From Candidatus Saccharimonadota bacterium (GTDB taxonomy: Bacteria; Patescibacteriota; Saccharimonadia; Saccharimonadales; JAGQNJ01): DNA of 64,000 nt. Position numbers and translations under genes: made by a program. The DNA lies in assembly GCA_036826295.1 (NCBI GenBank), contig DAISWO010000001.1:18068-82067 (forward strand), given 5' to 3'. Below, one piece after another: positions 47,408-64,000 of the stretch. The notes beneath the pieces were generated by a model. It was not told where the DNA came from, made no database searches, and saw only the letters and a list, made by a program, of their open reading frames with translations. Numbering within the stretch: position 1 is the first letter of the stretch; every line of letters begins with the position of its first letter.

Positions 47408-48330
47408 CGCTTCTTCCTCCGTTTCTTATTTTTATTCTTCTTAGGTGTTGGCTTTTTTACCACCTCTGCTTCCTTGGCTACTTTGGCTCGCTGTTTGGCG
47501 GATGGTTTATCGGCAAGTTCTTCTAGTTCTTCTTCGTCTTTATTAAGCACCCTGTTTTGCTGGAACAATGCGACGAGTCCACTAGTGAACCAATATAGAG
47601 ACAAGGCGGCAGGTAGGCCGATTGTGAAAATAAAAATCATGGCTGGGATTAAAAACTTGGTGCTACGTCCAATGGCAGAATTTACCTCAGATTGATCTGC
47701 CTGCTTGCCACTTCCAGCGTCTTTTAGAATATCGCGTAGCTTACGAGAGTTCTCGTCTGTTGGCATCAGCTGTTTGCTCTGATAATACTGAGTTATCGCA
47801 CTACCAACCACTAACAGGAATGCCGGAAAATAAAATCCCTCTGGGCCAATTGCTGGCCTAGTCAAATCGATTAGCCCAACTAGCGTTGCGTCAAACCGTG
47901 AAATATCCACAGCTAGATCTTTAATAGCGCCGAGGTTGTGGATGGCAGGATAGGTAAAATCAACCAGGCTATGCGGATCCTTAATAATCCTATTAAGGAC
48001 GCTGTACAGCGATAGGAAAATTGGTAACTGTACGAGCAACAAACCTACCGAGGCGAACGGATTAATCTCTTTTTCTTTATAGAGCGCCATTACCATGGTT
48101 GACTCTTTTGTGCGATCACCTTTAGCTTCTTTTTTAATCCTCTTTAGCTCGGGCTGAAGCTCGCGCATAGCCTTAGCGTGGTGGAGCTGTTTTTTAACTA
48201 GTGGCCACATCGCTAATCGCACCAATATAGTGAAAATAACGATTACAACGCCGAAGTTATGGCCTGGCAGTAACGCATAAATAAAAACCAGTAGGTTAAA
48301 AACTGGTTGAACTATAAGTGTAGTAAACAT
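47404..48330 (-). CDS. yidC: membrane protein insertase YidC (short Gram-positive type)
   Basis: LVRLAMWPL...QLHHAKAMRELQPELKRIKKE signature and a basic C-terminal tail. Confidence 0.9.
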   Translation of the reverse strand: MFTTLIVQPVFNLLVFIYALLPGHNFGVVIVIFTILVRLAMWPLVKKQLHHAKAMRELQPELKRIKKEAKGDRTKESTMVMALYKEKEINPFASVGLLLVQLPIFLSLYSVLNRIIKDPHSLVDFTYPAIHNLGAIKDLAVDISRFDATLVGLIDLTRPAIGPEGFYFPAFLLVVGSAITQYYQSKQLMPTDENSRKLRDILKDAGSGKQADQSEVNSAIGRSTKFLIPAMIFIFTIGLPAALSLYWFTSGLVALFQQNRVLNKDEEELEELADKPSAKQRAKVAKEAEVVKKPTPKKNKNKKRRKKR

Positions 48331-48446: not shown

Positions 48447-48791
48447 TTAGACTAGTTTGGCATTCTTCAGTAACTGCTCAATCATTTGTTTGAGATCAAT
48501 AGCCGGCATTTCAGCTACCGAGTCGTCAAAAATAGTAATAATCATATCGGCGTTTGACGAAAACTCTGGAATCTTTAATCTAACTATCTCAAAAATACGA
48601 CGCCGGATACGATTGCGCCCCACAGCTGATTTGTGTACTTTCTTACTAATAACTACAGCAATACGTGAACTGTCGCGCTTAGTGTTTAACACAAATTTTA
48701 GGCTTAAGGGGCCACTGCGAACCGTTTGACCACGGCTGTAGGTACTTCGTAAACTGTTATACCCGTGAAAACGGTTTTTTCTATTGATCAT
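48447..48791 (-). CDS. rnpA: ribonuclease P protein component
   Basis: 114 aa basic protein with a KKVHKSAVGRNRIRRRIFE motif. Sits between rpmH and yidC. Confidence 0.85.
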   Translation of the reverse strand: MINRKNRFHGYNSLRSTYSRGQTVRSGPLSLKFVLNTKRDSSRIAVVISKKVHKSAVGRNRIRRRIFEIVRLKIPEFSSNADMIITIFDDSVAEMPAIDLKQMIEQLLKNAKLV

Positions 48792-49292: not shown

Positions 49293-50648
49293 GTGCAGGA
49301 TAATCTGTGGCAAGCGGTTTTAGGAGAGATCGAGATGTCTGTCTCTCAAGGAAATTTTGCAACTTGGTTTAAAAACACCCATCTGCTAGAACATTCGGAA
49401 AGCGAAGTTGTAATTGGGGTGCCTAACATCTTTATCAAACAACAGTTAGAGCGAAAGTTTAACGATTTGTTGTCTGACGTACTGTCCAAGAATGGGTTAT
49501 CTAGCGCCGTTATTACATATAAAATTCACTCCCCTGCAAAACTCCACAACACCACCGATTACGACGACCCGGTAATTGTGAGGACTAGTGGTGGCTCGGC
49601 AAAAAGTCAGAGCGCCTTGGCCCACAGCTATCGTAGGGGACTAAATGAAAAATATACTTTCGATACTTTTATTGTAGGATCGGGCAACGAGCTAGCCTAT
49701 GCAACCTGTCAGGCCATTGCCGCACTCCCGGGCAAAAAATATAATCCGGTTTTTTTGTACGGCGGGGTTGGAATAGGCAAAACCCACCTTGCAGAAGCTG
49801 TTGGCAACGAAGTTGTGGCCAATAATCCCGATGCCAAGGTCATTTATGTTAGCAGTGAGCAGTTTGTTCAAGAATTTTTAGATGCTATTAGATACAAGAA
49901 GAATACTGACTTTGCTGGCTATTATCGTTCGGCTGACGTATTAATTGTTGACGACATTCAGTTCATTGCTGGTAAAGAAAAGACTCAAGAAGAATTTTTT
50001 CATACTTTTAATGCCCTTCATCAGGCTAACAAACAAATTATTATAACCAGCGATATGGCACCTAAAGACGTGCCAACACTAGAAGACCGGTTGCGATCGA
50101 GGTTCTCTATGGGTATGAGCGTCGATATGCAAATCCCTGATTTTGAGACACGTTGTGCAATCGTACAGACAAAAGCCGAAGCTCAATCTTTCGAGCTATC
50201 TCAACCAGTCGTCGAAGTACTAGCAGATAACGTTAGGACAAACATTAGGGAGCTAGAAGGAGCACTAAACCAACTTGTAGCAATGTGTGAGATGAAAGGC
50301 GTCGAGCCCGACGTAGAGCTCGCAAAATCAGTTATTGGAGCAAGTAGATCAAGAGCAAAACATATATCCTCTAAATCAGTTATTGATAAAACTGCTAAGT
50401 ACTTCGGCATATCTATGGACGATATTATGAGCCCGAAACGCGATAAAGATATTGTTATGCCAAGGCAAATATCGATGTTTTTACTGCGGAGCGAACTGCA
50501 CTTAAGCTTTCCTAAGATTGCAAGAGAACTTGGTCGAAAAGACCACACCACCGCCATACACTCAGTTGATAAGGTTGAAAAAATATTAAGTAATGACTCA
50601 TCACTACAGGCCGCTATTAATGAAATCAGGGAGAGAATCTATGCTTAA
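49293..50648 (+). CDS. dnaA: chromosomal replication initiator protein DnaA
   Basis: AAA+ Walker A LYGGVGIGKTHL, Walker B LIVDDIQF and a C-terminal HTH (ARELGRKDHTTAIHSV). Confidence 0.95.
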   Translation: MQDNLWQAVLGEIEMSVSQGNFATWFKNTHLLEHSESEVVIGVPNIFIKQQLERKFNDLLSDVLSKNGLSSAVITYKIHSPAKLHNTTDYDDPVIVRTSGGSAKSQSALAHSYRRGLNEKYTFDTFIVGSGNELAYATCQAIAALPGKKYNPVFLYGGVGIGKTHLAEAVGNEVVANNPDAKVIYVSSEQFVQEFLDAIRYKKNTDFAGYYRSADVLIVDDIQFIAGKEKTQEEFFHTFNALHQANKQIIITSDMAPKDVPTLEDRLRSRFSMGMSVDMQIPDFETRCAIVQTKAEAQSFELSQPVVEVLADNVRTNIRELEGALNQLVAMCEMKGVEPDVELAKSVIGASRSRAKHISSKSVIDKTAKYFGISMDDIMSPKRDKDIVMPRQISMFLLRSELHLSFPKIARELGRKDHTTAIHSVDKVEKILSNDSSLQAAINEIRERIYA

Positions 50649-50899: not shown

Positions 50900-51991
50900 A
50901 TGGATTTAAAATTAACCCAAGAAAACCTAAGCAAAGCCCTGAGCATTGTTGCTCGAGTTGCCAGTGGACGTAGCACCTTACCAATCCTAAGCAACATCCT
51001 TCTTAAGACGAATGCTAACAGGTTACAACTTTCAGCTACCAATCTTGACATCGCCATAACAGAATTTGTTGGGGCAAAAGTTACTAAAGAGGGTTCGATT
51101 ACGGTGCCAGCTAGATTGATGCAGGACTTTGTTTCTAACTTGCCTTCAGGTACTGTAAGCCTTTCTCAAAAAGATAATCGACTTGATATTAAAACCGAAA
51201 ATTACAGCTCTACACTTAACGGTATCTCGGCCGAAGACTTCCCCGTTATGCCTTTAATTGCTGAAGGGAAACAATGGGAAATCAGTTCTATTGTGTTAAA
51301 AAAAGCTTTTCAACAAGTGGTCGGTGCGGCTTCGAGTGACGACGCAAGACCGATTTTAACTGGCGTATTTCTCTCATCCCACGACAAAAAACTCTTCATA
51401 GCGGCCACTGATAGCTACCGACTAGCTGAAAAAACCATCGACAATATAACAGATGAAATAAAAATGCTCATACCTGTGAATGCCGCTCAGGAGTTGTTGC
51501 GAGTATTGGACGATACTGACGACAAAGTAAAGATAACCAGCGACGGTCAACAGGTAAGGTTCCAGACTTCAAAGACTGAATTAATTGCCCGTATGATCGA
51601 GGGAGAATACCCAGATTATCAGAAATTAATCCCAAACAAATTTGAGCGCACTGCTACAGCAGATCGGTCTGAACTTATTAATATCACAAAAGTCTCTAGT
51701 CTGTTCGCCAGAGAAAGTGCCGGCAGTATTATTTTAAAACTCGAAAAAGATAATGGGAAGATTACCGTCGCCTCGGTCGCCTCTCAGGTAGGAGAAAACA
51801 GTTCTAGTGCAACCGCCAAAGTTTGCGCCGACGGCGAGCTTACCCTAAACTCCAGATACCTACTAGAGGGTCTGCAGGCACTCGAAGGCAACCAAGTAGA
51901 GATTAACTTTAGTGACAAACTAGATCCGCTACTACTACGAAATCCAAAAAATAAAGATTATCTTCACATAGTAATGCCGCTTAAGAGCTAG
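50900..51991 (+). CDS. dnaN: DNA polymerase III beta sliding clamp
   Basis: Three-domain, roughly 360-aa clamp. N-terminus MDLKLTQENLSKALSIVARV. Confidence 0.95.
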   Translation: MDLKLTQENLSKALSIVARVASGRSTLPILSNILLKTNANRLQLSATNLDIAITEFVGAKVTKEGSITVPARLMQDFVSNLPSGTVSLSQKDNRLDIKTENYSSTLNGISAEDFPVMPLIAEGKQWEISSIVLKKAFQQVVGAASSDDARPILTGVFLSSHDKKLFIAATDSYRLAEKTIDNITDEIKMLIPVNAAQELLRVLDDTDDKVKITSDGQQVRFQTSKTELIARMIEGEYPDYQKLIPNKFERTATADRSELINITKVSSLFARESAGSIILKLEKDNGKITVASVASQVGENSSSATAKVCADGELTLNSRYLLEGLQALEGNQVEINFSDKLDPLLLRNPKNKDYLHIVMPLKS

Positions 51992-52007: not shown

Positions 52008-53072
52008 GTGATGATTACAAGTATTAGGCTTCAGAATTTTAGGTCGTATAAAGATAGCGCCTTTGAGTTTGAGTCTGGCACTAATATTATTGTTGGCCCA
52101 AACGCTAGCGGTAAGACCAACCTATTAGAGTCTGTTTACTATGTTTGTAGCATGGGAGCTTTTCGTTCGTCAGACCACCACAACATACAGACCGGCAAAA
52201 ACTGGGCAAGGATTGACGCCACTACTGACGATAATCAAAGACGGACCCTAAAACTAACCGAAGAGAATGGTCGAGTTAATAAAAACTTTGAGATTGATGA
52301 AGTAGTTAAAAAACGGCCAACAGCTAAAGAATCTATCCCAGTAGTATTGTTTGAGCCCAACCAACTATATGAATTAGTTACCTCCCCAGAAGAGCGCCGA
52401 AGTTTTATTGATAGTCTAGCGTGCCAAATCTATCCAGAGAATACAGTGGCGATCAGTAGTTATAAGCGGGCCTTATCACAACGTAATAGACTATTAAAAA
52501 TGGGGCGCAAGGACGCAGAGCAGTCGATTTTTGCTTGGAATATAAGGCTATCGGAGTTTGCCGAGACCATCGTTACTAGACGCCTAGAGCTTATAGAAGA
52601 GCTTAATAAAACCCTAGCTGAAAACTACACAGAGATTGCTGGCGACAAGTATCTGCTAATTGTAGGCTATCAGTCAAAAATAGCTAGCGCGTCTAACTAC
52701 GCCACTAGGTTGCTTCAGGCGCTAGAACAAAACCTAGAAAAAGATTTAGCGCGAGGCTTTACTTCTGTTGGACCACACAGAGACGACCTTTTACTAGAGC
52801 TTAATAACAATGATGTTCGTAGCTTTGCATCCAGAGGCGAGACTCGCACCGCCATACTCGCCTTAAAAAAATGCGAGACTACACTACTCGAACAAAAAAC
52901 AGGAAAAAAACCTATTTTACTATTTGATGACGTGTTTAGTGAACTGGATGGAAAAAGACGAAAACTATTAACCGGATTTTTGAGCACCAATCAAACACTT
53001 ATCACTACAACCGACGCCGACATTATCGATAAATCCTATGCCCAAAAAACCCAGCTGATCAAGTTAAAGTGA
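52008..53072 (+). CDS. recF: DNA replication and repair protein RecF
   Basis: Walker A GPNASGKTNLLE, signature-like region and Walker B LLFDDVFSELD. TGA stop. Confidence 0.9.
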   Translation: MMITSIRLQNFRSYKDSAFEFESGTNIIVGPNASGKTNLLESVYYVCSMGAFRSSDHHNIQTGKNWARIDATTDDNQRRTLKLTEENGRVNKNFEIDEVVKKRPTAKESIPVVLFEPNQLYELVTSPEERRSFIDSLACQIYPENTVAISSYKRALSQRNRLLKMGRKDAEQSIFAWNIRLSEFAETIVTRRLELIEELNKTLAENYTEIAGDKYLLIVGYQSKIASASNYATRLLQALEQNLEKDLARGFTSVGPHRDDLLLELNNNDVRSFASRGETRTAILALKKCETTLLEQKTGKKPILLFDDVFSELDGKRRKLLTGFLSTNQTLITTTDADIIDKSYAQKTQLIKLK

Positions 53073-54398
53073 GCCCTCTTGCCTCTCGATCATTACCCAT
53101 GTTTTATTCAGTTGATTAACGTCACAGACACAGGTATCTTTTAAAATACCAACAGTCTTACTTACAATATTTTTCGTTTTATTGTTATCTGCAGTCATTA
53201 CAACCGAGCTGTTCATAATACTATAGTCAAATGTGTATTGATCGTGTCTGACGGGCACCTTAGGCAGATTGTAACTTTTAACATTATTAATAATATCTTT
53301 ATCCGAATATACTACCATACGGTTGTTATTGGTTAATGATAGTAATATCAAAGGATTCTTTGAAGCAACAATTATTTTTGATACTGGATCGATTATCTTC
53401 GAACCAGAATGATCTATTTCAACAATTTGTTTCTCGCCGTTATTCAGGTCGTATATTTCAACTTTATCAGGCTTAGAAATTTTATTAAACGTAACGATAT
53501 GACCGTTATAGGTATCAGAATAGCCTTCGATAGGCGTGTAAGATTTTTCTTCACCTGTTACTAAATCCCGTATTTTTATGTCGTGGTTAGACCCCTTTTC
53601 TTCATTATGCTCTACTACGCCACCTTCGTCTCCAGAGATGGATTCATTTATTGGAGAGTATATTAATTTGTTTGTATGTTTGTCTAAAGTAACCCCAATA
53701 GCACTATTTATAATTTTTTTAATTGACGATCCATCATGCTCATAGACAGCGCCCGCATAGTCAGTAAGGTATATTCTTTCCCCGACAGAGCCAATAATTT
53801 TCCTTGCCGCTATATCATTAACAAGCGAGCGATACTTCCCTGAATCCTCCTTAATCAACATATCTACCTTTTCCCCAGACGACAATAAAAAAACAATACC
53901 TTTTTTGGTTAGAATTCCATCTATTACAGAATTATATTTGGGAGGAAACGCAGCTTTAATAGAATTGCTAGTTATTAAAAACCAAGCTTGTTTGTTGTAT
54001 CTAGGCGGTTCACTACCACTTAGGTAGTTGTTCAATAGTTGGCTGTTAGGCGGGTAATAGTAGGATCTAACTAGGAGTTTATTATCTAAACCTGAAACTT
54101 TGTCAACATTATATAGAGGAAAGTCGTCGGTGAGTAGCTTGGTATTTAAAAAATCTTTATCATTAGCAAGATTCAACACAGCACTAGAAGAGCCAGTAAA
54201 GAATCCTAATTCTTTTGAATCTTTTGAATAATCAAAGTTGTCGATTCTCGCAATGTTTGTTGCTGCAATATCACTAGAACGCAATCTATAATCATCAACG
54301 TCCTCGCTCTTCCTCAATAAAGATACCAAAATAAGCAATATACACATAAATGTTAATAGTATTGATACTAAAATTACCACTCTTTTTTTATTCATCAA
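53064..54398 (-). CDS. membrane-anchored extracellular hypothetical protein (last gene of the T4SS-like operon)
   Basis: N-terminal TM (VVILVSILLTFMCILLILVSLL), then roughly 400 aa of predicted extracellular, beta-rich sequence. Function unknown. Confidence 0.45.
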   Translation of the reverse strand: MMNKKRVVILVSILLTFMCILLILVSLLRKSEDVDDYRLRSSDIAATNIARIDNFDYSKDSKELGFFTGSSSAVLNLANDKDFLNTKLLTDDFPLYNVDKVSGLDNKLLVRSYYYPPNSQLLNNYLSGSEPPRYNKQAWFLITSNSIKAAFPPKYNSVIDGILTKKGIVFLLSSGEKVDMLIKEDSGKYRSLVNDIAARKIIGSVGERIYLTDYAGAVYEHDGSSIKKIINSAIGVTLDKHTNKLIYSPINESISGDEGGVVEHNEEKGSNHDIKIRDLVTGEEKSYTPIEGYSDTYNGHIVTFNKISKPDKVEIYDLNNGEKQIVEIDHSGSKIIDPVSKIIVASKNPLILLSLTNNNRMVVYSDKDIINNVKSYNLPKVPVRHDQYTFDYSIMNSSVVMTADNNKTKNIVSKTVGILKDTCVCDVNQLNKTWVMIERQEGSL

Positions 54399-54407
54399 AC
54401 TTCCTCC

Positions 54408-56102
54408 TTAATACCAATTAAAAGCATGCGAGTGTTCAAGAGCACGACATGGCGTTTGATATCTACCTGCAATATAGTCTAGGCCCCAGGTTATCTGGGT
54501 TCGTGGATTAGTACGCCAGTCAGGGCCTGCAGTCGCCATTTTCCCACCAGGCTTAGATTGAGGCAAACCATAAGCGTCATCCTCTTCTTCGGTTATGGTT
54601 TCGCTTCCATTAAGAGATCCGTCTCCGTTGGTGTCGTTATTGCCTTCAGCGTCATTGATTGCAAGATGATTCCAGCTAGACTCTCTGGTCCATAGCTCTA
54701 ACAAACAACCCCACTCTGACCCGGTCCAACCCCTTTCTGCAGCCATAGACTCGCCAAGTTTTTTATTTTCATCTGGCGTACCACCACTTCCACCATATTG
54801 TGGGCTCCCGCAATTATCCACGTTAGTAAACCCACCAGTTTTTACAGCCTCAATAATTTTATTTAGGTATGTGTCTCCAACATCACTTTTTCTACCTGGG
54901 CTAATTAGGTGATGTGACAATACTCCCTTTAGATCACCCACATTAGTGTCGGTCTCCATCCCATATTTTTGGATAATATACGATACTGTTTTAGCAACAG
55001 CAGCTGCCTGGACAGGGTTATTATTAATCTCTTGTTCTGCTGTTTCAACCGTCCCATCACTACCTGCGGCAATTTCTATACCAATTGTTTTGCTATTGGC
55101 GTTTGAAGCGTGAGCAGTTAGGGTTGCTAGATCATCCACTAATTGATATACCGTTCCCGATCCATCGATGTATAACTGAACCGACAGCCCCCTGCCACCA
55201 ATAATAGAAATAAAATCTTCTACACTAGTGTTCGGAGATCCGCCGGTCCAGTGCAGAACTACACCTGTTGGCTGTATGGGTGGTCCAGAGAAAGGAGCTG
55301 GCGATATCTTTTGGATAAAATCTCCTGATACTTCTCCGTTAGTTTGAGGCGCGCTCGTGTCGATGGTGGCCGTAGTACCTGTTGATCGTGTTGCTGGTGC
55401 TTCGCCAACCTCGCCAGCCAACCACTTAGATTTCTTATCGTAACCAGCATCGGTATGATGCACACCATCTTCAAGGTAAGGATACTTTTCGGGATTACTA
55501 GTGACCTCTTCCTCCCAGTTCAGTATGGTATATTCAAGGTCTTCAGACCGGCTTTCGATCAATCGGTTTACCTCGTCGTTTCCTAAAAATGAAGGGTCAA
55601 TAAACGCACCATCTTTAACATGTACATTTACCCAGTAGACTTTAGCAGTGGGCGCTTTATCCTTAATTTTTTCAATTAACTCAGGGATTTTTTGTTCAAG
55701 ATCGGTTTCAGGGTTTGTGCCTAGGGCTACTACGATCGCATCACTTTCGGCGACTGTGTCTTTATCTTCCTCGATCTTAGGTAATGAGTCTCCAATATTG
55801 AACCCATTAGTAGCTTGAATATCAGGACTACCCCAACCTTTGTCTTCTAGTTTCGAAACTAGACTGCCCTTTTCTCGCATCCCTACGGTTAACGAGTCAC
55901 CAATCATATATATATTTGCACCCAAATCTGATGCGTCTTCTTCACATTCGTTGTCTATATCAAACCTAAGGCTCCCCCCGTCGATAACTTGTTTTTGTTC
56001 CGTACTTAAAGCTATTGCGACGTTTGATGCGCCGGAAACATAATTGAAGAATAAAACCCCAAGGATTAGCAGTGTTGATATTCTCAAAAATAACCTATTC
56101 AT
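54408..56102 (-). CDS. secreted trimodular cell-wall hydrolase: SGNH/GDSL esterase + amidase_2 (N-acetylmuramoyl-L-alanine amidase/PGRP) + SLT-like lytic transglycosylase
   Basis: Signal peptide MNRLFLRISTLLILGVLFF. GDSL block IYMIGDSLTVGM and SGNH block V of the same esterase, DGVHHTDAGY. Amidase_2-like region VVLHWTGGSPN...SVQLYIDGSGTVYQLVDD...IGIEIAAG. C-terminal WGCLLELWTRESSWN...AYGLPQS matches the E-S...GLMQ-type transglycosylase motif. Start set at the ATG 2 nt after the upstream stop (TAG-TA-ATG); the track ORF begins 30 nt earlier inside the upstream gene. Confidence 0.7.
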   Translation of the reverse strand: MNRLFLRISTLLILGVLFFNYVSGASNVAIALSTEQKQVIDGGSLRFDIDNECEEDASDLGANIYMIGDSLTVGMREKGSLVSKLEDKGWGSPDIQATNGFNIGDSLPKIEEDKDTVAESDAIVVALGTNPETDLEQKIPELIEKIKDKAPTAKVYWVNVHVKDGAFIDPSFLGNDEVNRLIESRSEDLEYTILNWEEEVTSNPEKYPYLEDGVHHTDAGYDKKSKWLAGEVGEAPATRSTGTTATIDTSAPQTNGEVSGDFIQKISPAPFSGPPIQPTGVVLHWTGGSPNTSVEDFISIIGGRGLSVQLYIDGSGTVYQLVDDLATLTAHASNANSKTIGIEIAAGSDGTVETAEQEINNNPVQAAAVAKTVSYIIQKYGMETDTNVGDLKGVLSHHLISPGRKSDVGDTYLNKIIEAVKTGGFTNVDNCGSPQYGGSGGTPDENKKLGESMAAERGWTGSEWGCLLELWTRESSWNHLAINDAEGNNDTNGDGSLNGSETITEEEDDAYGLPQSKPGGKMATAGPDWRTNPRTQITWGLDYIAGRYQTPCRALEHSHAFNWY

Positions 56103-56104
56103 TA

Positions 56105-59011
56105 CTATCTCCCATTTACCGACCAGTGCCAAGGTTCGCTCGGCAGATTAAAGAACCCATAGGTTGCAGCATTTGCGGACAACCATATATAGCATGCGGT
56201 CCCACGCGATCGGCAATTATCGAAGTCAATAGCTAAACCTCTTTCATGATTAGATGTGCCGGGTATTGCAGTCGGGACCCTGCAAGATGATGGCGATGCG
56301 TTATATATGTCCGGACATCCGTTTATTATGCGTAACTGAATTTGTCTAGCGTTGCTTCTCCAGCAAGAACCAGTCAATGTCACTCCATCAGCCGCCGCCG
56401 CCGCGATCATAGCGTTAGCATTTGCGGCTATACTCTTATGACAACCCGAACTGAGCCCAGTAACCGGTTCAATATCTGCTTCGGTAACAACTCCGTCTGG
56501 AAGAGGACCATTAGCCCCTGGTGTCGAACTTGATTTGCTCTGGTCTGGTAATCCTAATTCATCGCATGCGGATTCGTCGGCGCCCTCATAGCACACGGCT
56601 GATTTTGCGGTAATTGTGTCGGAGAGGTAGAAGCGATATTTTTTTAGCTTTATTTTTTCGGTCTCGTTAATACCAACACCGGCGCATTTCTCTGGTATGT
56701 CTTTATAATTAACTGCTTCAGTGGTTTGGATTTTTCCTGTTGTGCTGATTGTGGTCTTAAAACACTTTTCGCCGTACTTTCTGTTCATTTCCTTCAAAAG
56801 TTCAAAATTATTCTTTTCCATTTCTTTGGCTATGTCGTAAGGGTTCTCAAAAGTCTCATCTCTTTGTTCGTCTAGGCTGAAGCCGTATTCTGGGAAGCCA
56901 TAGTCGTAGTCAACTGATGCAGCTTTTGTCTTGCCGCCGAAGATATTGCCAAAATTAGTGAATATATTGCTGAAGTTCTTTAGTGGTGCTTGTAGGCCAT
57001 AAGACAGAGTTGATGAGGTTGCAAAATAATTCGGGTTATTAAACACTGATGAGGCGAATAACGAGTTAGTTTCTTTAGGGTCTAAATAGCGGGCGTATAG
57101 ACTCTTGGTCTTCATGTCGTAGCGCTCTAACTCTTTGCGCTTATAGTCTAGGGCAATTTCTTCTTCAGGCTGTAGCTCTCTTCCGCCAAAACTCAGAGCA
57201 TTATCATTAGCATTTAATCGATTCCCAAAGTTAACGCAGTTACCCCACTGCGGACCATCGGCACATTGCAGTGCCGCCCCCGCCAACCAATTAACAAGCG
57301 AATCTACATAATCGGATCCTAGTACGCCCGCTCCAATAAATATAGCGTTCACTGTGGCTGAAGCTGCGGCTGCCGATGCTCCTCCAGAAATGAATGCAAC
57401 GACCCCGTCAAGGACATCGGAAACGCCTATACAGGCACTACCCACGCAAGCATTCAGATCTATCAATACATCACAAGCTGTCTGGCCTGTTGGAAGGGCA
57501 TTGATAAGGTCATTAATAACCGTAAAAAGTGGTGGATTCTCTTTACCGGGTTTAGAACTGGCTGGTAAATCTGCTGGTTTAACTCGCTGCCCCTCATTTT
57601 CTCCTTTGGTGGCAGTTCGTTCACCGATTTGATCTTGACCGAGTTCTGCCTGGATACTATCTGCGGAAAAGGCGCTAAGCTTACCTATGTCAGTATCGCC
57701 CATAAATCTAGTAAACAATGCACCCATTTCGTCTGAGGTAACGTCTTGATCACCGAACTGAACTTGAGAACCTAAGGCTAGGCCATCAAGACCAATTCTC
57801 ATTAGAGGAATAACAAGTTCCGCCTGTCGGATAGCTTCCATAGAGCCACCGATCTGATCAATGTTACAGATGAGCTCATAGAGGCCCACTGCACCAACCG
57901 TTCCCGCTACAGCACCAATTATTTTACCTTTAACTCCTGATGGTGTATCTGCATCCAGGCCATCGGGGGCGTTCCGACGAATATTATCTCTTGTATCGGC
58001 GTCTATTTGGTCTTGAGATGGGGGTGGTTTGGCTCTATCGGGGGCTGATACCCCAGTTTTTACACGCTCGTCATGATGCTGTTTTACGGATTTGGTGTAG
58101 TCAACTATTGACTCACCGGCTTCTCGATAAAAGTTTTGTAATGGGTGAAACCCCCCAGCGTAGCGCTTTTTAGACAGCCTGTGGGTAATAGCGTTTGAGA
58201 TACCATCTTCGCTTATTGCTATTCTTAAGTCGTCAGTCATAGTACGGATTCCGGTTCGACTGCCAAACCCCCTCGGCGCATCGATCTGCTTTAATCTGCC
58301 GTCTCCTGAACTACTGTAACCTTTGGCTTTTAATTCGTCGAAAGCACTTTTGCCTTTAGGCGTATCAGTATCAAAAGTAAAACTAGTCAGAACTTTATTA
58401 CTATAATTTGGGGTAATACCAAGATCTTTCAGTCTGGTGTCAACCTTTTTAGCGTATTTATTGCCAATTGCACCGAGGTTATTGTCTATACCGTTACCAC
58501 GAGCATATCGCCATAAGCGAGTTAGACGTCCGTCTTGCATATTGGCGTTATTCTCGTGGTGAAACGGCCCCATAAGACTTGCCATATGAACAAATGCTAG
58601 TGGACCACTGGCGGTCATTAATATCCCTAGGATACCCCCGATGCCTAAGATTCCTGCAACGCCACCAGCGGCTTGTTTTTTAGTAATCTTTCCACGAAAA
58701 CGCCCGCTTTTTTTGCCATTGCTAGTGTCTTTAAAGAATCCTGAATTGTTATTATTATCATCTCCGTGTGAGATTGCCTTATTGTCGAGTAATTTACTTG
58801 CTTCGTCTTTTCCGGCTCGGTAGGGAGAGCTGTCGTAGCCTAATTTTTCGCGCTTGGCTATATCTTCTGCGGCCCCGTTGTGAGCCTCACGGTCCATAGC
58901 GTCTTCTTGGTCTTTATGGATGCCCATTAATTCTCGGAGTTTATCGTCAGAGATATTATTATCGCCGGCAAGGCTTTTGTCCTCAGTTTTTTCTGGATCG
59001 TAGACTGACAT
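56105..59011 (-). CDS. large polytopic membrane protein with C-terminal M15 (VanY-like) peptidoglycan peptidase domain; possible VirB6-like T4SS channel component
   Basis: 968 aa with several Gly/Ala-rich TM segments (AGGVAGILGIGGILGILMTASGPLAF, KIIGAVAGTVGAVGLYELI, VVAFISGGASAAAASATVNAIFIGAGVLG). The C-terminus carries VanY/M15 zinc motifs (GTSNHERGLAIDFD and SEPWHW). Confidence 0.6.
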   Translation of the reverse strand: MSVYDPEKTEDKSLAGDNNISDDKLRELMGIHKDQEDAMDREAHNGAAEDIAKREKLGYDSSPYRAGKDEASKLLDNKAISHGDDNNNNSGFFKDTSNGKKSGRFRGKITKKQAAGGVAGILGIGGILGILMTASGPLAFVHMASLMGPFHHENNANMQDGRLTRLWRYARGNGIDNNLGAIGNKYAKKVDTRLKDLGITPNYSNKVLTSFTFDTDTPKGKSAFDELKAKGYSSSGDGRLKQIDAPRGFGSRTGIRTMTDDLRIAISEDGISNAITHRLSKKRYAGGFHPLQNFYREAGESIVDYTKSVKQHHDERVKTGVSAPDRAKPPPSQDQIDADTRDNIRRNAPDGLDADTPSGVKGKIIGAVAGTVGAVGLYELICNIDQIGGSMEAIRQAELVIPLMRIGLDGLALGSQVQFGDQDVTSDEMGALFTRFMGDTDIGKLSAFSADSIQAELGQDQIGERTATKGENEGQRVKPADLPASSKPGKENPPLFTVINDLINALPTGQTACDVLIDLNACVGSACIGVSDVLDGVVAFISGGASAAAASATVNAIFIGAGVLGSDYVDSLVNWLAGAALQCADGPQWGNCVNFGNRLNANDNALSFGGRELQPEEEIALDYKRKELERYDMKTKSLYARYLDPKETNSLFASSVFNNPNYFATSSTLSYGLQAPLKNFSNIFTNFGNIFGGKTKAASVDYDYGFPEYGFSLDEQRDETFENPYDIAKEMEKNNFELLKEMNRKYGEKCFKTTISTTGKIQTTEAVNYKDIPEKCAGVGINETEKIKLKKYRFYLSDTITAKSAVCYEGADESACDELGLPDQSKSSSTPGANGPLPDGVVTEADIEPVTGLSSGCHKSIAANANAMIAAAAADGVTLTGSCWRSNARQIQLRIINGCPDIYNASPSSCRVPTAIPGTSNHERGLAIDFDNCRSRGTACYIWLSANAATYGFFNLPSEPWHWSVNGR

Positions 59012-59048
59012 TTATTCTACCCTCTAGTGCCTAAAGTCATTTCAATCA

Positions 59049-60977
59049 TTATATCGCAGGTGGAGTACTTATTGGACTTAAGTTGATATTGCCCTGACCG
59101 TCTTTAATAACTCCTTTGGAGTCAAGGTCTTGGATCTCTTCGGGGTTGGTGGTGATTAGGCTAGTCTCGGTATCACTGGCTGCAATCTGTATGTGCACAT
59201 GATTCTGACCGGCAAAGAACAAGCCTTGACCAATAGGAAACTGACTTAATCGCTTTGCCTCATTCTCGGTAAGCTTAAAGACGTCGGCCAGCATATCAAC
59301 TGCTGACGGAGACTGCTTTAGTAGCAGTTGCAGAGAAGCGTTGGCTACAATTGCCCGACCTAGACGTGATCCAATAAAATCTTCTACATCCTGAGTAATA
59401 GTGGTTATGCCCAAGTTATATTTTCGGGCCCGCTTAGCCAGAGAAAACATAAAGTTAGCAGAATCTTCATATCGCATTATCTGCCAAGCCTCATCAATAA
59501 TTAAGATACGTTTTTTCATGTCGGATTTGGTGATATTCCAAATATGGTTGAGCACGATATACATAGCTACAGGTCGGAGTTCGTCCTCTAGATCGCGAAC
59601 GTTAAAGACTACCATTTGGTTTTTCATCTCAATATTGGATTGCTGAGAGAATATGCCAGCAAATGTACCGCTAGTGTATTTTCGTAGGCGTTGTGCCAGC
59701 TGTGGGCCGGTGCCTCCCATGTGTAGCAGGGTATCGTACAAATCAGTAATGGTAGGCGGTATAGAATTATGGGTAAGTGGGTCTTGGGTTATTCCTGCCT
59801 TGGCATACGTTTCAATTAATGCGGCGTCTAAATCAGCCTCTTCGACTGGTGATAATGCTGGCGCTGATGTACCGCCACTAGATTGCGATGCTAGCATCTG
59901 AGCCTGCGCCCCACCCATCATCAATCTCAATAGCCCATGTAATGTTATTAGGTTGCTACGTAGTGCGTTATCGGCCTCGTCAGTATCAATGACTTTAGGC
60001 AAGTCGAACGGGTTGATTCGTGTATTAGAGTTTAAGCTTAGTCGGACATAGGCGCCAGCGACTGCTTCACACATCCTTTGGTATTCGTTCTCAGGATCAA
60101 CTATCACAATCTCTGTGCCAAACATCATAGAACGAAGTGCTTCTAGCTTAACGGCAAAAGATTTTCCGGCACCAGATTTTGCGAACACCACGGCGTTGCC
60201 GTTTTCTAGACTAAAGCGATCAAATATAACCAGTCCAGAGTTATGCATATTTATCCCATAAAGCACGCCGTCATCTTGGCTGAGGTCGGCGCTAGTGAAT
60301 GGGAAGCTGGTACTGGCAGCACCAGTGCTCATGTTACGCCTAATCTCTAGCTGATCGGTAAATTGAGGTACGGTACTAGCTAGCGCTTGCTCTTGTTGTG
60401 AAGTAGCGGGTTTTGAATAGACTAGTTGTTGGCCAAGCATAGACTCAACCTTATGTGCTATATACTCGAGCTCGTCTAGGCTATTGCCATAAATAGTAAA
60501 GTAAAAGCCAATCCTAAAAAAGCGCTCTTCGCCAACTTGGAGCTTGTCGCGAATTTCTTCAGCATCGGTAATTGCAGCTTGTTTGCCGGGGTCACGGACT
60601 CGGCCCTTTTCTTCGTCGATCTGAATTCCGGCTTCCATTTGCGATACTTTTTTACGCAGACTTTCCATAACTAGTCGGCTTTCAACAGGATAAATAAACA
60701 TTGAGATGTCGATTATCTCGTCAAGGTTGATTAGCCCACTGGTCCAGCCGGTAGTTAGTGAACGTGGATATCCAAAAACATAGTACGTGCGGGCAAAGCG
60801 ACTACCAATCTGAAAGTGAGTGCTACTCAGCTCTACCGAGCTTGGGGCGATAAAATCGCGAAGTGCAGTTACGCCCTTTCTATAAATTTCGCCGACTTCT
60901 TGCTCTTCGCGTCGGCGCTGAGCTTCAGCTAGCTCTTTAGGATCGGTAATGGCTTTTTTGCCGCTAAATAGACCCAT
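59049..60977 (-). CDS. VirB4-family type IV secretion ATPase (TraE/PrgJ/TcpF-like)
   Basis: VirB4 N-region ALRDFIAPSSVELSSTHFQIGSRFARTYYVFGYPRS, Walker A VVFAKSGAGKSFAV and Walker B ILIIDEAWQIM. About 640 aa, as in Gram-positive VirB4 homologs. Confidence 0.85.
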   Translation of the reverse strand: MGLFSGKKAITDPKELAEAQRRREEQEVGEIYRKGVTALRDFIAPSSVELSSTHFQIGSRFARTYYVFGYPRSLTTGWTSGLINLDEIIDISMFIYPVESRLVMESLRKKVSQMEAGIQIDEEKGRVRDPGKQAAITDAEEIRDKLQVGEERFFRIGFYFTIYGNSLDELEYIAHKVESMLGQQLVYSKPATSQQEQALASTVPQFTDQLEIRRNMSTGAASTSFPFTSADLSQDDGVLYGINMHNSGLVIFDRFSLENGNAVVFAKSGAGKSFAVKLEALRSMMFGTEIVIVDPENEYQRMCEAVAGAYVRLSLNSNTRINPFDLPKVIDTDEADNALRSNLITLHGLLRLMMGGAQAQMLASQSSGGTSAPALSPVEEADLDAALIETYAKAGITQDPLTHNSIPPTITDLYDTLLHMGGTGPQLAQRLRKYTSGTFAGIFSQQSNIEMKNQMVVFNVRDLEDELRPVAMYIVLNHIWNITKSDMKKRILIIDEAWQIMRYEDSANFMFSLAKRARKYNLGITTITQDVEDFIGSRLGRAIVANASLQLLLKQSPSAVDMLADVFKLTENEAKRLSQFPIGQGLFFAGQNHVHIQIAASDTETSLITTNPEEIQDLDSKGVIKDGQGNINLSPISTPPAI

Positions 60978-60979
60978 AT

Positions 60980-61840
60980 CTATAAATCCTGCTCGATACT
61001 AGGTTTTGGGGCGTGCCCCGGACCTTTTACGATTACTGGTGCGGACACATCATCAAAATTATGCAATTGCTGTCTAGTAGCGGTATCGGGGTTATAAAAG
61101 TCATAATACAGTTCGATTAATTCCTGCGTATCAAGAGGTACAGACTTTACTCCGCATTGTTCGAGACCTGCGATTACGGCTTGGATCCGGTTTCGAAGCT
61201 CATCTTTTGCTTCGGCAAGGACTTGCTCGGTAACCACCACCTGAGGTTGCTTTGATTTGTTAAGCATACTCGACAACCCGGTAAAAAAATTCTTACTCTG
61301 CGTTATGGCGCGTTTAACTGAGACATTAGAGAAGAATGGCACAACGATATAAAAATATTTGTCCATAATATTTGATTCGGTAGATAGGTCAGTAATGTAA
61401 TCGATATAATCATCCATCAATATACCGAGAAGCATGTTGTCTTCTTGGCTTCTTGTTTTTGCCAGCTTGTCTAGGTACGGACGGATATCGACTTTTTGTG
61501 ATCGGATAAAGATTTGAATATCAAAATATAGTGAGTTTAGAAATGCTTGATAACCAGCCTCCACCGATTCTTGTTCCCCGGCGCTCATTAAATCAAAGTT
61601 AATACTTTTTGCCATAACGACAGAGCGAAAAGATCCATCGTTCATGATAACAATGCCGTCACGGATCTCTGCAATCTGTAACATATTCTGTGTACTAGCT
61701 GGATTTGCCTTTGGCTTAGCCGGTTGTTGAGCTGGGGCTGGTGCGCGGGTCGCGGCTTTTGCAGGCTGAACTACGCCTTGTACTGGTGGCTGGGCTGTTT
61801 GGGTTGGTGTCTGGGGTGGTTGGTTCATATTAGGATTCAT
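60980..61840 (-). CDS. T4SS-associated protein with Pro/Gln-rich N-terminus (possibly a separately encoded VirB4 N-terminal-like domain)
   Basis: The stop TAG is followed by AT and then the VirB4 ATG (translational coupling). The region LQIAEIRDGIVIMNDGSFRSVVMAKSINFDLMSAGEQESVEAGYQAFLNSLYFDIQIF resembles the extreme N-terminus of long Gram-positive VirB4 proteins. The first roughly 50 aa are P/Q/A-rich. Confidence 0.4.
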   Translation of the reverse strand: MNPNMNQPPQTPTQTAQPPVQGVVQPAKAATRAPAPAQQPAKPKANPASTQNMLQIAEIRDGIVIMNDGSFRSVVMAKSINFDLMSAGEQESVEAGYQAFLNSLYFDIQIFIRSQKVDIRPYLDKLAKTRSQEDNMLLGILMDDYIDYITDLSTESNIMDKYFYIVVPFFSNVSVKRAITQSKNFFTGLSSMLNKSKQPQVVVTEQVLAEAKDELRNRIQAVIAGLEQCGVKSVPLDTQELIELYYDFYNPDTATRQQLHNFDDVSAPVIVKGPGHAPKPSIEQDL

Positions 61841-61986
61841 ACGATAGAAACCAGATTAATTTTGTATGCTGCTTTTGTGACCATAAAGTAATCAATCCCT
61901 GTCTTGGTATTTTTGTCATGGATTGGGTAGTGTTTAGTTTTATCGAGATTCATTAGTTTGCCCACCAATAGGCTGATTCGATGTTA

Positions 61987-62955
61987 CTAATGTAGAGATA
62001 CGACTACCTCATCATCTGTATCACCGTTGCTAACTTCAGAGTCTTGCGTTACATCAATTTCTGAAGAAAGCTTACGCTTATTAACACCGTTAAGTATATC
62101 AGGAACTGCCGGTGGTGTCATCGGTTGTTTTGTTGTATTTTGCGAAGTGGTCTGTGTTGTCGTCTGTGGCGTTGCATATGCAGGGGTGTCTTGCCTTGCA
62201 GGGCTAGATTTCAAAATGATTCTTGGTGCCGGCGCAGATACTCTGGCTGGACTTGAGTTAGGTACTGAAGGCGTTACAAGATTAGGCGTAACGATTTGGT
62301 TGTTCTCAGCAATACTTTGCATGTTAGACAACAATTGCTGACGGCGGATTAACTCGGACTCATCAACCATGTTTGTTAGCTGGGCTGCAAGGGGATTGGA
62401 GGTTGAAGTGTTAAGCATATCAGCTGCCGGCTTAATTGCGGCTAAGGCGTCATCTTCGGGGGTTTTTTGGATCTCTAGTAACCGGTCGTTATTTTGCTGG
62501 TCCTCAAGTCGCCGGTTGCCGGGAACTACGTTTTTAACAATCCAGCCACGAGTATCCATAGTGTTGGCAAGTGTTTTGAGTCGGCTATTTACCTCTGATT
62601 TACTCAACCCATCAGAATAATGTTTTTCAATCTTTTTAGGCACAGTAACTTTTACTAGGTGTTCAATGCCCTCTTGGTCCCAAAGACGTTTTTTAGTGAA
62701 TAGAAAGAAGCGTACTTTTCCCAGTAGCCATATCTCTGATGATTGATCACGACCAAAAGGGGCGGCCAGCAGTAAAAAGAAAATTAGTGGAGGGATTAAC
62801 GGAATAGTCATAAACCATAAATTCTCCTTTATGAAAAAGAATCCTACAAAACCAATAGTTACAACTATCGACGCATAGATAAATTGACGCAGTGTAAATG
62901 GGCCTAGAAGTTTGTCTTCTGCCTCAATATCTTGGATTACTTTATACTCTGCCAT
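61987..62955 (-). CDS. PrgI-family (VirB3-like) T4SS membrane protein with long Thr/Gln/Pro-rich C-terminal extension
   Basis: N-terminus MAEYKVIQDIEAEDKLLGPFTLRQFIY followed by two TM helices matches the PrgI/VirB3 pattern (Y-x-IP-x-DI...GLTxRQ) as I recall it. Roughly 200 extra low-complexity C-terminal residues. Confidence 0.55.
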   Translation of the reverse strand: MAEYKVIQDIEAEDKLLGPFTLRQFIYASIVVTIGFVGFFFIKENLWFMTIPLIPPLIFFLLLAAPFGRDQSSEIWLLGKVRFFLFTKKRLWDQEGIEHLVKVTVPKKIEKHYSDGLSKSEVNSRLKTLANTMDTRGWIVKNVVPGNRRLEDQQNNDRLLEIQKTPEDDALAAIKPAADMLNTSTSNPLAAQLTNMVDESELIRRQQLLSNMQSIAENNQIVTPNLVTPSVPNSSPARVSAPAPRIILKSSPARQDTPAYATPQTTTQTTSQNTTKQPMTPPAVPDILNGVNKRKLSSEIDVTQDSEVSNGDTDDEVVVSLH

Positions 62956-63028
62956 ACTTACATATTAGCAAAAGCGGAATAATTTTGTTTATTAAAAAAG
63001 CTAAGCCTGCACTAACAAAACATTTCTT

Positions 63029-64000
63029 TTAGTTATTGCTTGTGTTGTTAGAGTCGATTCTGCGCGTTCTATTCCCTTCCCAGCGGAATTGTGGGTTTAC
63101 TTCTGTAGGTGTTGGCTTTCTCTCTAGTTTTTTGACAATCCTGCGAGGTAAAGCTGCTTTTGCTTCGGCCTTCTTTCGGGCTAAGTTGGCGTCGGCGTCA
63201 AATCTAGCATCTTCACGGTGCGCCTCTTTCCAAACTCTCCGTATTTCTTTATCGGTTTTTTTTCGTACCTCTCTGTCAGCTTTTCGTTTAGCTCGTTCTT
63301 TTACTTCTCGCTCATGAAGTTCGAATTCTTTTTTTGACTCATCGGCTTTTTCTCGGTGTTTACGAGCTTTTTCTCGTGCCTTAACGCTGTCTCTGCCGTA
63401 TATTCCACCAGGTTCTTGAAGTAATTCACCGGCTTTTTTGGTCACAAATTCCTCAACCTTAACTACGCGTGTTCTATTTCTCTCTGTTGTACCGGCTTTC
63501 GCAACTTGTTGCACTACTCTTTCGCCGTGTCTGTTGGTACTCGTAACAAAGCCGCTAGACTTTGTAGCTTTGATACGAAGTTGTTTTCTTTCCATGTCTT
63601 CTCTAGTGATTGCTTTACTACGGAACTGTTCTTTGACCTCACTTAGTCTTTGGCGTTGTCGAAGCCATGGCTTGATTCCGGCCGTTTGGTTTGAGCTTTT
63701 TCCTGATTTACTTTTGAGTACTCGTTGTTCGCCAAGCTTTCTTGCTCGTGCGTGAACACGATTTTCGACAAATTCCTCAAATTTATTTTTGGCAGGGACT
63801 TGCTCGACAATCTTTTCTGTTTTTTCCCATGCACCGCCGGGCCCCCGGACAACTACCTTATCAACTACATTTGCAATTCCCTGCGCCTCTACCTTATCAA
63901 CACCAATTACTTTGGCAATTAATAGTCCGCCTAGTTGTCGGTAGAATTTTGACCTATGTTTATCTCTTTCAGATTTAGCTGTGGATTCGACGGCTATTCT
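63029..64000 (-). CDS. highly charged Lys/Arg/Glu-rich protein, 5'-truncated by window edge (longer than ORF-track entry)
   Basis: The track lists 63029-63595 from an internal Met. My translation of the reverse strand from 64000 down to 63596 is stop-free and in frame (...RIAVESTAKSERDKHRSKFYRQLGGLLIAKVIGVDKVEAQGIANVVDKVVVRGPGGAWEKTEKIVEQVPAKNKFEEFVENRVHARARKLGEQRV...EDMERKQLRI...), so the CDS runs off the window. Confidence 0.5.
   Translation of the reverse strand, partial: RIAVESTAKSERDKHRSKFYRQLGGLLIAKVIGVDKVEAQGIANVVDKVVVRGPGGAWEKTEKIVEQVPAKNKFEEFVENRVHARARKLGEQRVLKSKSGKSSNQTAGIKPWLRQRQRLSEVKEQFRSKAITREDMERKQLRIKATKSSGFVTSTNRHGERVVQQVAKAGTTERNRTRVVKVEEFVTKKAGELLQEPGGIYGRDSVKAREKARKHREKADESKKEFELHEREVKERAKRKADREVRKKTDKEIRRVWKEAHREDARFDADANLARKKAEAKAALPRRIVKKLERKPTPTEVNPQFRWEGNRTRRIDSNNTSNN

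Follow-up and report, generated by a model that had tools for sequence, protein, structure and literature searches.

Origin-proximal type IV secretion locus of a Saccharibacterium with a conserved ATPase and exchangeable predicted wall-cutting modules

We analysed a type IV secretion system (T4SS) locus that occupies positions 53064-64000 of a 64-kb stretch of Saccharimonadota DNA (the window, to whose whole length all positions refer) and continues past the window end. This region is very probably the promoter-distal half of a vertically inherited, origin-proximal chromosomal T4SS of a Saccharibacterium (class Saccharimonadia, Patescibacteria/Candidate Phyla Radiation). Few proteins of these genomes are as conserved as the ATPase engine, whereas the predicted cutters encoded behind it are reshuffled even between near-identical engines. 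The T4SS and its non-conjugative reading are already known, and the comparative make-up of the modules is an incremental addition. Set against the passages of the literature cited here, the new elements are a second enzyme-bearing component (a large family of scaffolds whose C-terminal enzyme is exchangeable), the frequency of SGNH esterases and the rapid shuffling of modules compared with a nearly frozen ATPase.

Gene order and the conserved engine

Seven open reading frames (ORFs) run co-directionally on the minus strand from position 53064 to the window end. All lie where the original prediction had described a near-gapless reverse-strand operon, and family searches reproduced its domain calls:

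53064-54398, minus strand: 444-aa ORF (443/444 aa) with an N-terminal membrane anchor, last gene of the operon
54408-56102, minus strand: predicted wall hydrolase (public gene call of 564 aa, start codon ATG at 56102)
56105-59011, minus strand: 968-aa membrane protein with a C-terminal M15 domain (ORF and family search)
59049-60977, minus strand: VirB4 ATPase, C-terminal ATPase-bearing part, 642 aa
60980-61840, minus strand: TrsD-like protein, 286 aa
61987-62955, minus strand: PrgI/VirB3-like membrane protein, 322 aa
63029-64000, minus strand: highly charged protein, partial, with a frame open to the window end (3′ 324 codons of a 446-aa gene)

The hydrolase ORF itself spans 54408-56132 (574 aa), reaching upstream to a TTG at 56132. 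Counted from the 444-aa gene towards the 446-aa gene, the intergenic gaps measure 9, 2, 37, 2, 146 and 73 nt, and the stop end of the 444-aa gene shares 9 nt with the 3′ end of recF. Between 52.5 and 64 kb, promoters and terminators were matched at chance level only, from which no operon boundaries can be drawn, and an Rfam scan of the window returned no match.

The conserved engine consists of a PrgI/VirB3 membrane anchor and a VirB4 that is split into the TrsD-like protein and the 642-aa ATPase. Because VirB4 scores above the curated cutoff of the CD1110 family (NF045971 conju_CD1110, E = 2.7e-103, 346.7 bits against a cutoff of 325) and is accompanied by PrgI and TrsD, the sequences support a T4SS of the Gram-positive (MPF_FATA-like) type, as had been proposed. 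VirB4 further matches P-loop_TraG (8e-28), AAA_10 (1.5e-12) and Mbov_0397, an ATPase family of Mycoplasma integrative and conjugative elements (ICEs; 1.7e-74). The PrgI domain (PF12666, 3.3e-9, above cutoff) covers residues 5-90 (nt 62686-62943) of a protein in which a hydrophobic hairpin (segments at 22-69) is followed by a long S/T/P/Q-rich tail.

The TrsD-like protein, which the original prediction called a coupled P/Q-rich ORF, is indeed coupled and P/Q-rich at its N-terminus, but that description is corrected here to a TrsD-like, split-off VirB4 N-terminal domain. Behind the P/Q-rich part lies a domain homologous to the VirB4 N-terminal domain, with matches to NF041427 TrsD/TraD (2.6e-8), NF045971 (positions 2-119, 6.2e-6) and NF045975 (9.2e-8) and a precomputed match to PF26593 TraC-like. 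Because this homologue is encoded only 2 nt from virB4, we regard VirB4 as split into two coupled genes. A separate TrsD ahead of the VirB4 ATPase is also a feature of pGO1.

At least 572 relatives of VirB4 were found in GTDB contigs, with one genome per species. Among the 80 relatives listed, which are 76-96% identical, 78 bear a title that names Saccharibacteria, Saccharimonadales/Saccharimonadia or Patescibacteria, and the remaining two have different labels of metagenome-assembled genomes (MAGs). By these relatives the organism is a Saccharibacterium, in keeping with the epibiotic small-genome bacterium that had been suggested.

The operon is convergent on recF and lies in the dnaA-dnaN-recF neighbourhood that the original prediction had recognised, as seen in the ORFs and their translations:

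49293-50648, plus strand: dnaA (ORF translation)
50900-51991, plus strand: dnaN (ORF translation and precomputed Pfam match)
52008-53072, plus strand: recF, convergent on the T4SS operon (ORF translation and precomputed Pfam match)
48447-48791: rnpA, on the far side of dnaA from the T4SS
47404-48330: yidC, likewise on the far side of dnaA

A synteny comparison with other Saccharibacteria, which had been proposed as a check, covered 80 loci (L004-L083) from other Saccharimonadales species, chosen by VirB4 similarity. Nearly all of them share the order HSP20, pilin array, VirB6-like protein, PrgI, TrsD, VirB4, ~1000-aa protein, hydrolase, one to three small exported proteins and recF-dnaN-dnaA. 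Because this order is kept in nearly all 80 species, we regard the locus as a vertically inherited core locus and not as a mobile element. The dnaA, dnaN, recF, rnpA and yidC neighbours are shared by 53-67 of the 80 loci, PrgI orthologues occur in 71, the TrsD-like protein in 79 and pilin arrays in 53-56, and the scaffold and hydrolase slots directly after virB4 are filled in 74-79. One locus, L034, is an exception in that PrgI-TrsD-VirB4 is followed by unrelated genes instead of scaffold, hydrolase and recF-dnaN-dnaA, and pilin genes lie on the other side; it could be rearranged or a second locus.

We measured conservation as the median identity to the window proteins over these loci. VirB4 (78.6%) is more conserved than DnaA (65%), DnaN (57%) and RecF (46%), whose genes lie within a few kb of it in each genome, although this figure and the contrast are somewhat inflated because the loci were selected by VirB4 similarity. 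The corresponding values are 61% for TrsD, 41% for PrgI, 33% for the VirB6-like protein and 28% both for the 968-aa protein (BLAST-detectable in 41 loci) and for the hydrolase (BLAST-detectable in 28 loci).

The original prediction ended the locus at 64000, but on the full contig the module runs on for ~8 kb. We read the genes beyond the window on the ENA contig NODE_29 (133 kb, L001), which encodes the PrgI protein and matches the final 11 kb of the window without a single mismatch, so that a window coordinate equals 72956 minus the L001 position. Past 64000 the contig carries, in this order, the remainder of the 446-aa gene, a polytopic protein of 601 aa, two anchored ~297-aa paralogues, a divergent 186-aa anchored protein, six pilins and HSP20. 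The 446-aa protein, whose gene reaches window-equivalent 64369, is K/E/R-rich and soluble with no hydrophobic segment; it has no Pfam or NCBIfam match, and BLAST found it in 2 of the 80 loci, the two closest relatives.

The 601-aa protein (L001 6696-8501, window-equivalent 64455-66260) has ~5 hydrophobic segments and is a VirB6-like candidate, with positional homologues of 588-1305 aa. A precomputed match to PF19590 TrbL_3, carrying no weak mark, stands against nothing at E <= 0.1 in a current hmmscan of Pfam-A and NCBIfam, and the protein had no match among PDB sequences. A profile of the TrbL-like family returned only noise from PDB sequences (HA2 coiled coils at E ~0.05). The two tandem paralogues of 296 and 298 aa (L001 4809-6690, window-equivalent 66266-68147) have near-identical N-termini (MFNKKFAIFGA...), hydrophobic segments at both ends and no family match, and homologues are present in only 20-28 of the 80 loci.

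Six tandem VirB2-like genes (PF18895 T4SS_pilin) occupy L001 1257-4104 (window-equivalent 68852-71699), 4.8-7.7 kb past the window end. The pilins also match NF045849, the Mbov_0395 family of pilin-like proteins from Mycoplasma ICEs, with E values from 2.8e-12 to 2.9e-6, of which only the best is above cutoff. Because of this match and that of VirB4 to Mbov_0397, pilin-like proteins seem not to be wholly absent from MPF_FATA-class systems, contrary to an assumption made in the PMC12102498 survey.

Enzyme modules encoded behind virB4

Directly behind the engine the operon encodes a predicted envelope-cutting module with three positions. The first is a ~1000-aa membrane scaffold with an exchangeable and probably extracytoplasmic enzyme, here M15, the second a Sec-secreted multi-module hydrolase, here SGNH plus Amidase_2 plus a lytic-transglycosylase (LT)-like domain, and the third one to three fast-evolving anchored or exported proteins.

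The 968-aa protein comprises a charged N-terminus, ~3-4 hydrophobic segments, a ~700-residue cysteine-rich and mostly helical body and the C-terminal M15 domain (VanY PF02557, 4e-10, residues 857-964, nt 56120-56443). The VanY/M15 assignment of the original prediction thus held, and what it had called polytopic amounts to these about 3-4 segments. The domain is of the VanY/LdcB-like type, a LAS-fold zinc peptidase; the M15 fold was confirmed, and its motif H922-x6-D929 plus H962 is intact and invariant or nearly so across the family. A positively charged stretch precedes the first hydrophobic segment and the number of segments is probably odd, which would place the M15 domain outside the cell, a topology read from hydrophobicity and charge without a dedicated topology tool.

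A profile of 13 close homologues found 857 clusters (50% identity) at E <= 1e-30 among 1.84 billion representatives. Most of them measure 900-1250 aa and align to profile positions ~50-830, that is to the body, with or without an M15 tail. Structure prediction had been proposed as a check for this protein. AlphaFold reached a pLDDT of 77.8 and a pTM of 0.70 with a 75-sequence alignment, and the model obtained with the 13-sequence alignment was unusable (pLDDT 45). No solved structural relative was found for the ~700-residue body. The idea that the body is a VirB6/TrbL paralogue was rejected, as hhalign against the TrbL-like family gave a probability of 0.7%.

The hydrolase begins with a Sec-type signal peptide, which contains an N-terminal hydrophobic segment. 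It carries an SGNH/GDSL esterase module (nt 55437-55904; PF13472 Lipase_GDSL_2, 6.5e-9), an Amidase_2 module of the N-acetylmuramoyl-L-alanine amidase type (nt 54876-55274; PF01510, 6.2e-15) and a C-terminal LT-like module (nt 54411-54608). The original prediction of an SGNH-esterase/Amidase_2/SLT-like enzyme holds for the first two modules; the third matches Pfam SLT PF01464 weakly (E = 0.098) and strongly matches NF052397, an aggregation-promoting-factor C-terminal-like family (1.5e-25). The motifs GDSL, GTNP, DGVHH, LHWTGG, SHH..D and RESSWN are present, the last of these corresponding at the C-terminus to the E-S motif that marks lytic transglycosylases of family 1. None of the four enzyme domains has lost its catalytic motifs (SGNH GDSL/GTN/DxxH, Amidase_2 His and Asp, LT-like and M15). 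A phmmer search of the whole hydrolase against PDB sequences gave nothing at E <= 0.01. With predicted wall-cutting domains, export or anchoring and a place in a T4SS operon, the hydrolase and the M15 scaffold both have what is expected of VirB1-like proteins, as far as sequence can tell.

In the 444-aa protein the only hydrophobic segment (3-32) precedes a large part that would lie outside the cytoplasm, and there is no Pfam or NCBIfam match. Only 4 homologues were found among 5.8 billion proteins, and BLAST matches occur in 2 of the 80 loci, again the two closest relatives. Although it sits in a PrgL-like position, no family match links it to a VirB8-like (PrgL/TcpC/TraM, NTF2-like) subunit. 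In other loci this fast-turnover slot holds Big_5, PEGA, CarboxypepD_reg or proteins without a Pfam match.

To describe the second gene after virB4 (slot +2), we scanned 74 positional equivalents with Pfam. The families detected were Phage_lysozyme2 (44), GDSL_2 (22), M23 (13), CHAP (10), Amidase_3 (9), C39_2 (8), NlpC/P60 (7), Glucosaminidase (6), SLT_2 (5), SLT (4), Amidase_2 (3) and GH3 (2), in architectures such as SGNH-GH3-lysozyme, SGNH-glucosaminidase, SGNH-x-M23, lysozyme-Amidase_3-NlpC/P60, GH3-lysozyme-M23 and lysozyme-C39. As a rule, a module predicted to cut glycans is combined with one for peptides or amides, and an SGNH esterase is often added. In the scaffold, the last 350 residues contain VanY in 23 of 75 proteins and elsewhere Amidase_2, GDSL, M23, EEP, GDPD, M14, CHAP or alginate lyase. 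Modules of the hydrolase also occur at the scaffold C-terminus (SGNH in L038 and L059, Amidase_2 in L042 and L007), and catalytic modules are swapped between species in both enzyme proteins and move between the two. This turnover is rapid. In the close relative L004, whose VirB4 and DnaN are 96% and 88% identical to those of the window, the hydrolase has the architecture SGNH-GH3-Phage_lysozyme2, with only the SGNH module in common, and the terminal gene is unrelated.

Related systems and the remainder of the window

According to McLean et al. 2020 (PMC7427843), who first noted the system in TM7x, a T4SS region with VirB4, VirB6 and VirB2 is conserved across Saccharibacteria and includes an array of small secreted proteins. 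Wang et al. 2023 in Cell (PMC10633639) report by transposon sequencing that SEML1_0006-0019 of Southlakia epibionticum are essential in co-culture, and that this cluster is most like Gram-positive conjugative systems, has pilins and is without recognisable coupling or relaxase proteins. According to Tables S1 and S2 of that article, the cluster follows directly after dnaA-dnaN-recF. In the same source SEML1_0006 has two lysozyme-like domains and a cysteine protease, SEML1_0007 (1113 aa) ends in a Hedgehog/DD-peptidase domain, and SEML1_0008, 0009 and 0010 are VirB4, the TrsD-like protein and PrgI.

The window locus resembles Southlakia ML1 SEML1_0004-0019 in its position right after dnaA-dnaN-recF and convergent on recF. 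It has the same order of exported proteins, hydrolase, ~1000-1100-aa protein with an M15/DD-peptidase C-terminus, VirB4, TrsD-like protein, PrgI, large membrane protein and pilins, and in both clusters no relaxase or coupling protein is recognisable. We infer that the two are orthologous, with the individual genes matched by position and domains rather than by sequence alignment. They differ in the hydrolase, which in Southlakia combines a glucosaminidase, a phage-tail lysozyme and a cysteine protease whereas that of the window has SGNH, Amidase_2 and LT-like modules, and in the terminal genes, which are prealbumin-like/BT0923-like and PEGA in Southlakia whereas the window has one 444-aa protein without a detectable family.

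Quinonero-Coronel et al. 2025 in Microb Genom (PMC12102498) describe a Patescibacteria VirB4 clade beside MPF_FATA and Patescibacteria T4SSs with TrsD, PrgI, VirB6, pilin arrays of 2-11 genes, no relaxases and proximity to dnaA. They also mention that peptidase and lysozyme homologues directly downstream of virB4 are essential in Southlakia, that VirB1 homologues are few and other glycosidases or peptidases downstream of virB4 may serve instead, and that Southlakia has no VirB8 structural homologue. The window locus agrees with these systems in its MPF_FATA-related VirB4, TrsD, PrgI, pilin array, lack of a relaxase and location near dnaA/dnaN/rnpA/rpmH, but the systematic swapping of modules after virB4 and the ~1000-aa scaffold family are not described in the sections of that survey considered here. 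These findings are repeated in a 2025 FEMS review (PMC12857230), and a 2024 perspective (PMC11665869) calls the role of the T4SS 'completely unknown', with effector delivery or nucleotide uptake as candidates. The non-conjugative T4SS of an epibiont put forward by the original prediction is therefore supported, but PMC7427843, PMC10633639, PMC12102498 and PMC12857230 had already published it.

The sources differ on the coupling protein. PMC10633639 recognises none in the cluster, PMC12102498 places a distant, non-essential type IV coupling protein (T4CP) homologue elsewhere in the ML1 genome, and PMC12857230 counts a VirD4-like component among the products of the locus.

MPF_FATA systems (pCF10 PrgH-PrgL, pIP501 Tra, pGO1 Trs, pCW3 Tcp and CTn2 CD1110) share with the window locus a VirB4 above the CD1110 cutoff, PrgI, a hydrolase adjoining virB4 and the lack of outer-membrane core components; the TrsD ahead of the VirB4 ATPase is a likeness to pGO1. 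PrgK has the architecture LytM-SLT-CHAP, TraG of pIP501 SLT-CHAP and TcpG glucosaminidase-NlpC/P60. Unlike these conjugative systems, the window locus has a fixed chromosomal position and no relaxase, T4CP or oriT found nearby, and it has VirB2-like pilins, a second enzyme-bearing membrane protein and no detected VirB8-like protein. Its cutters, SGNH, Amidase_2 and M15, differ from the two-domain pair of monoderm VirB1-like enzymes, an SLT lytic transglycosylase and a CHAP amidohydrolase/peptidase, given in PMC12102498. On that account the statement of the original prediction that Gram-positive T4SSs carry one wall hydrolase was an understatement; its unusual arsenal is partly ordinary, and what goes beyond a two-domain VirB1-like enzyme is the second enzyme-bearing membrane protein and the SGNH esterase. 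Compared with VanY/LdcB/VanXY (MEROPS M15) and the endolysins LysB4 and Ply500, the M15 domain of the window differs in being the tail of a ~850-residue membrane scaffold, and its sequence does not reveal which bond it would cut, as a DD-carboxypeptidase, an LD-carboxypeptidase or an L-Ala-D-Glu endopeptidase.

Elsewhere in the window, nearly 38 kb (8675-46414) form one cell-surface glycan biosynthesis region, which is large for a ~1 Mb genome. It encodes BacA, a Wzy_C ligase/polymerase, an initiating sugar transferase, GlmS, PGM/PMM, RmlA/B/D-like proteins, UDP-glucose dehydrogenase, a pyruvyl transferase, a DegT aminotransferase, PMT_2, an ABC ATPase and at least 8 glycosyltransferases. Four large ORFs in or beside this region have no Pfam match at E <= 0.001, and their neighbour 28297-30279 is DUF7657/DUF7654:

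6803-8392, minus strand: 529 aa
20782-22284, minus strand: 500 aa
31688-33211, minus strand: 507 aa
33886-35628, plus strand: 580 aa

Function and alternative readings

We propose that the machine is non-conjugative and would build a pilus or channel at the contact between epibiont and host, and that the enzyme module would open peptidoglycan so that this pilus or channel can cross the wall. Lytic transglycosylases need a free MurNAc C6-OH, which an O-acetyl-peptidoglycan esterase would expose. O-acetyl groups, which stand in the way of lytic transglycosylases, are probably taken off by the SGNH esterase. The LT-like domain would then cut glycan strands, the amidase would strip stem peptides and the M15 peptidase would shorten or cut these peptides.

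On another reading the locus would belong to an ordinary ICE, with relaxase, T4CP and integrase beyond the window end, and its components are indeed homologous to the ICE and plasmid conjugation families CD1110, Mbov_0397, TrsD and Mbov_0395 pilin-like, in a segment (54-62 kb) with a GC content of 0.43-0.46, slightly above the window mean of ~0.40. We consider it extremely improbable and rejected it, since the chromosomal site is fixed across species and no relaxase, T4CP or integrase lies nearby. As the original prediction had noted for the window, none of these three was found by family scans in the 37 window ORFs, of which the 30 outside the operon have housekeeping roles or belong to a long stretch for surface-glycan biosynthesis. 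That prediction had also held that a relaxase, VirD4 or integrase just outside the window would make the locus an ordinary ICE; none was found in the next 9 kb, and the rest of the genome was not searched. Apart from T4SS genes, pilins and HSP20 there is nothing in those 9 kb, recF-dnaN-dnaA make up the opposite flank, and a tRNA scan of the window gave no tRNA gene. Position and neighbours are unchanged in nearly all of the 80 species, and VirB4 is more conserved than DnaA. According to PMC12102498, among thousands of Patescibacteria genomes only 103 have a relaxase, which seldom lies close to virB4.

Modules are reshuffled among close relatives while the ATPase is nearly frozen, and the enzymes may therefore act at least partly on the host wall, tracking host envelope chemistry, to which we give a little less than an even chance. 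Only slightly less credible is that they serve purely as a VirB1-like assembly aid which opens only the cell's own peptidoglycan for the T4SS, their diversity being neutral turnover of equivalent modules. PrgK, TraG of pIP501 and TcpG are likewise encoded next to virB4, the gene order here (VirB6-like, PrgI, VirB4, hydrolase, anchored protein) is colinear with prgH-I-J-K-L of pCF10, and the pairing of a glycan cutter with a peptide or amide cutter is as expected of a generic hole-puncher; monoderm VirB1-like enzymes are, according to PMC12102498, two-domain wall hydrolases too. However, own-wall chemistry should be stable among close relatives, yet L004 differs in its modules and has a non-homologous third gene despite its VirB4 identity of 96% and DnaN identity of 88%. 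GDPD, alginate lyase, EEP and GH3 are atypical of self-wall remodelling, and two enzyme-bearing proteins exceed the need of known systems. An uptake device like ComB of Helicobacter or archaeal Ced, importing host nucleic acids or nucleotides while the hydrolases clear both walls, is unlikely. It would suit Saccharibacteria, which are without nucleotide synthesis; ComEC-dependent competence is dispensable in Southlakia, and the T4SS was proposed as a route in PMC11665869 and PMC12857230. A 2026 preprint (10.64898/2026.06.21.733656) describes host-RNA feeding and possible T4SS pili in another lineage. VirB4 matches the ATPases of archaeal DNA import CedB (8.2e-14) and CedD (7.9e-6) far below their cutoffs, but these matches are generic P-loop similarity, and family scans recognised no DNA-binding or nuclease component in the locus.

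Several points weigh against the reading of a vertically inherited, host-contact T4SS with partly host-directed enzymes. Essentiality for this uncultured MAG would be an extrapolation from one cultured relative. The case for a host-directed action is the pattern of diversification, and relaxed constraint, arms races with host inhibitors or own-wall variation could explain the turnover as well. In known T4SSs the wall that VirB1-like enzymes attack is that of the donor itself. Since SGNH domains show broad chemical promiscuity, a role in peptidoglycan de-O-acetylation is assumed. A VirB8-like component was not recognised at the locus, and the VirB6 assignment of the 601-aa protein was not reproduced by current Pfam and NCBIfam. 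A T4CP gene may exist elsewhere in the genome, and many distant T4CP homologues in Patescibacteria are reported in PMC12102498.

If the modules do act on the host wall, they would be candidate host-specificity determinants for a large uncultured lineage. We tentatively suggest, as somewhat doubtful, that the two enzyme proteins after virB4 form a host-range cassette, in which the scaffold presents an interchangeable enzyme at the contact with the host and has a secreted partner shuffled from modules that cleave glycans, peptides and esters, both jointly breaching the host's particular envelope and so giving the T4SS pilus or channel access to the host membrane. The ~1000-aa scaffold family, with hundreds of clusters and no solved homologue, is an obvious structural target for monoderm T4SSs. 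If the cassette is real, its pattern resembles polymorphic-toxin-style evolution tied to an essential T4SS, and the combination of modules would help to predict the hosts that an uncultured Saccharibacterium can parasitise.

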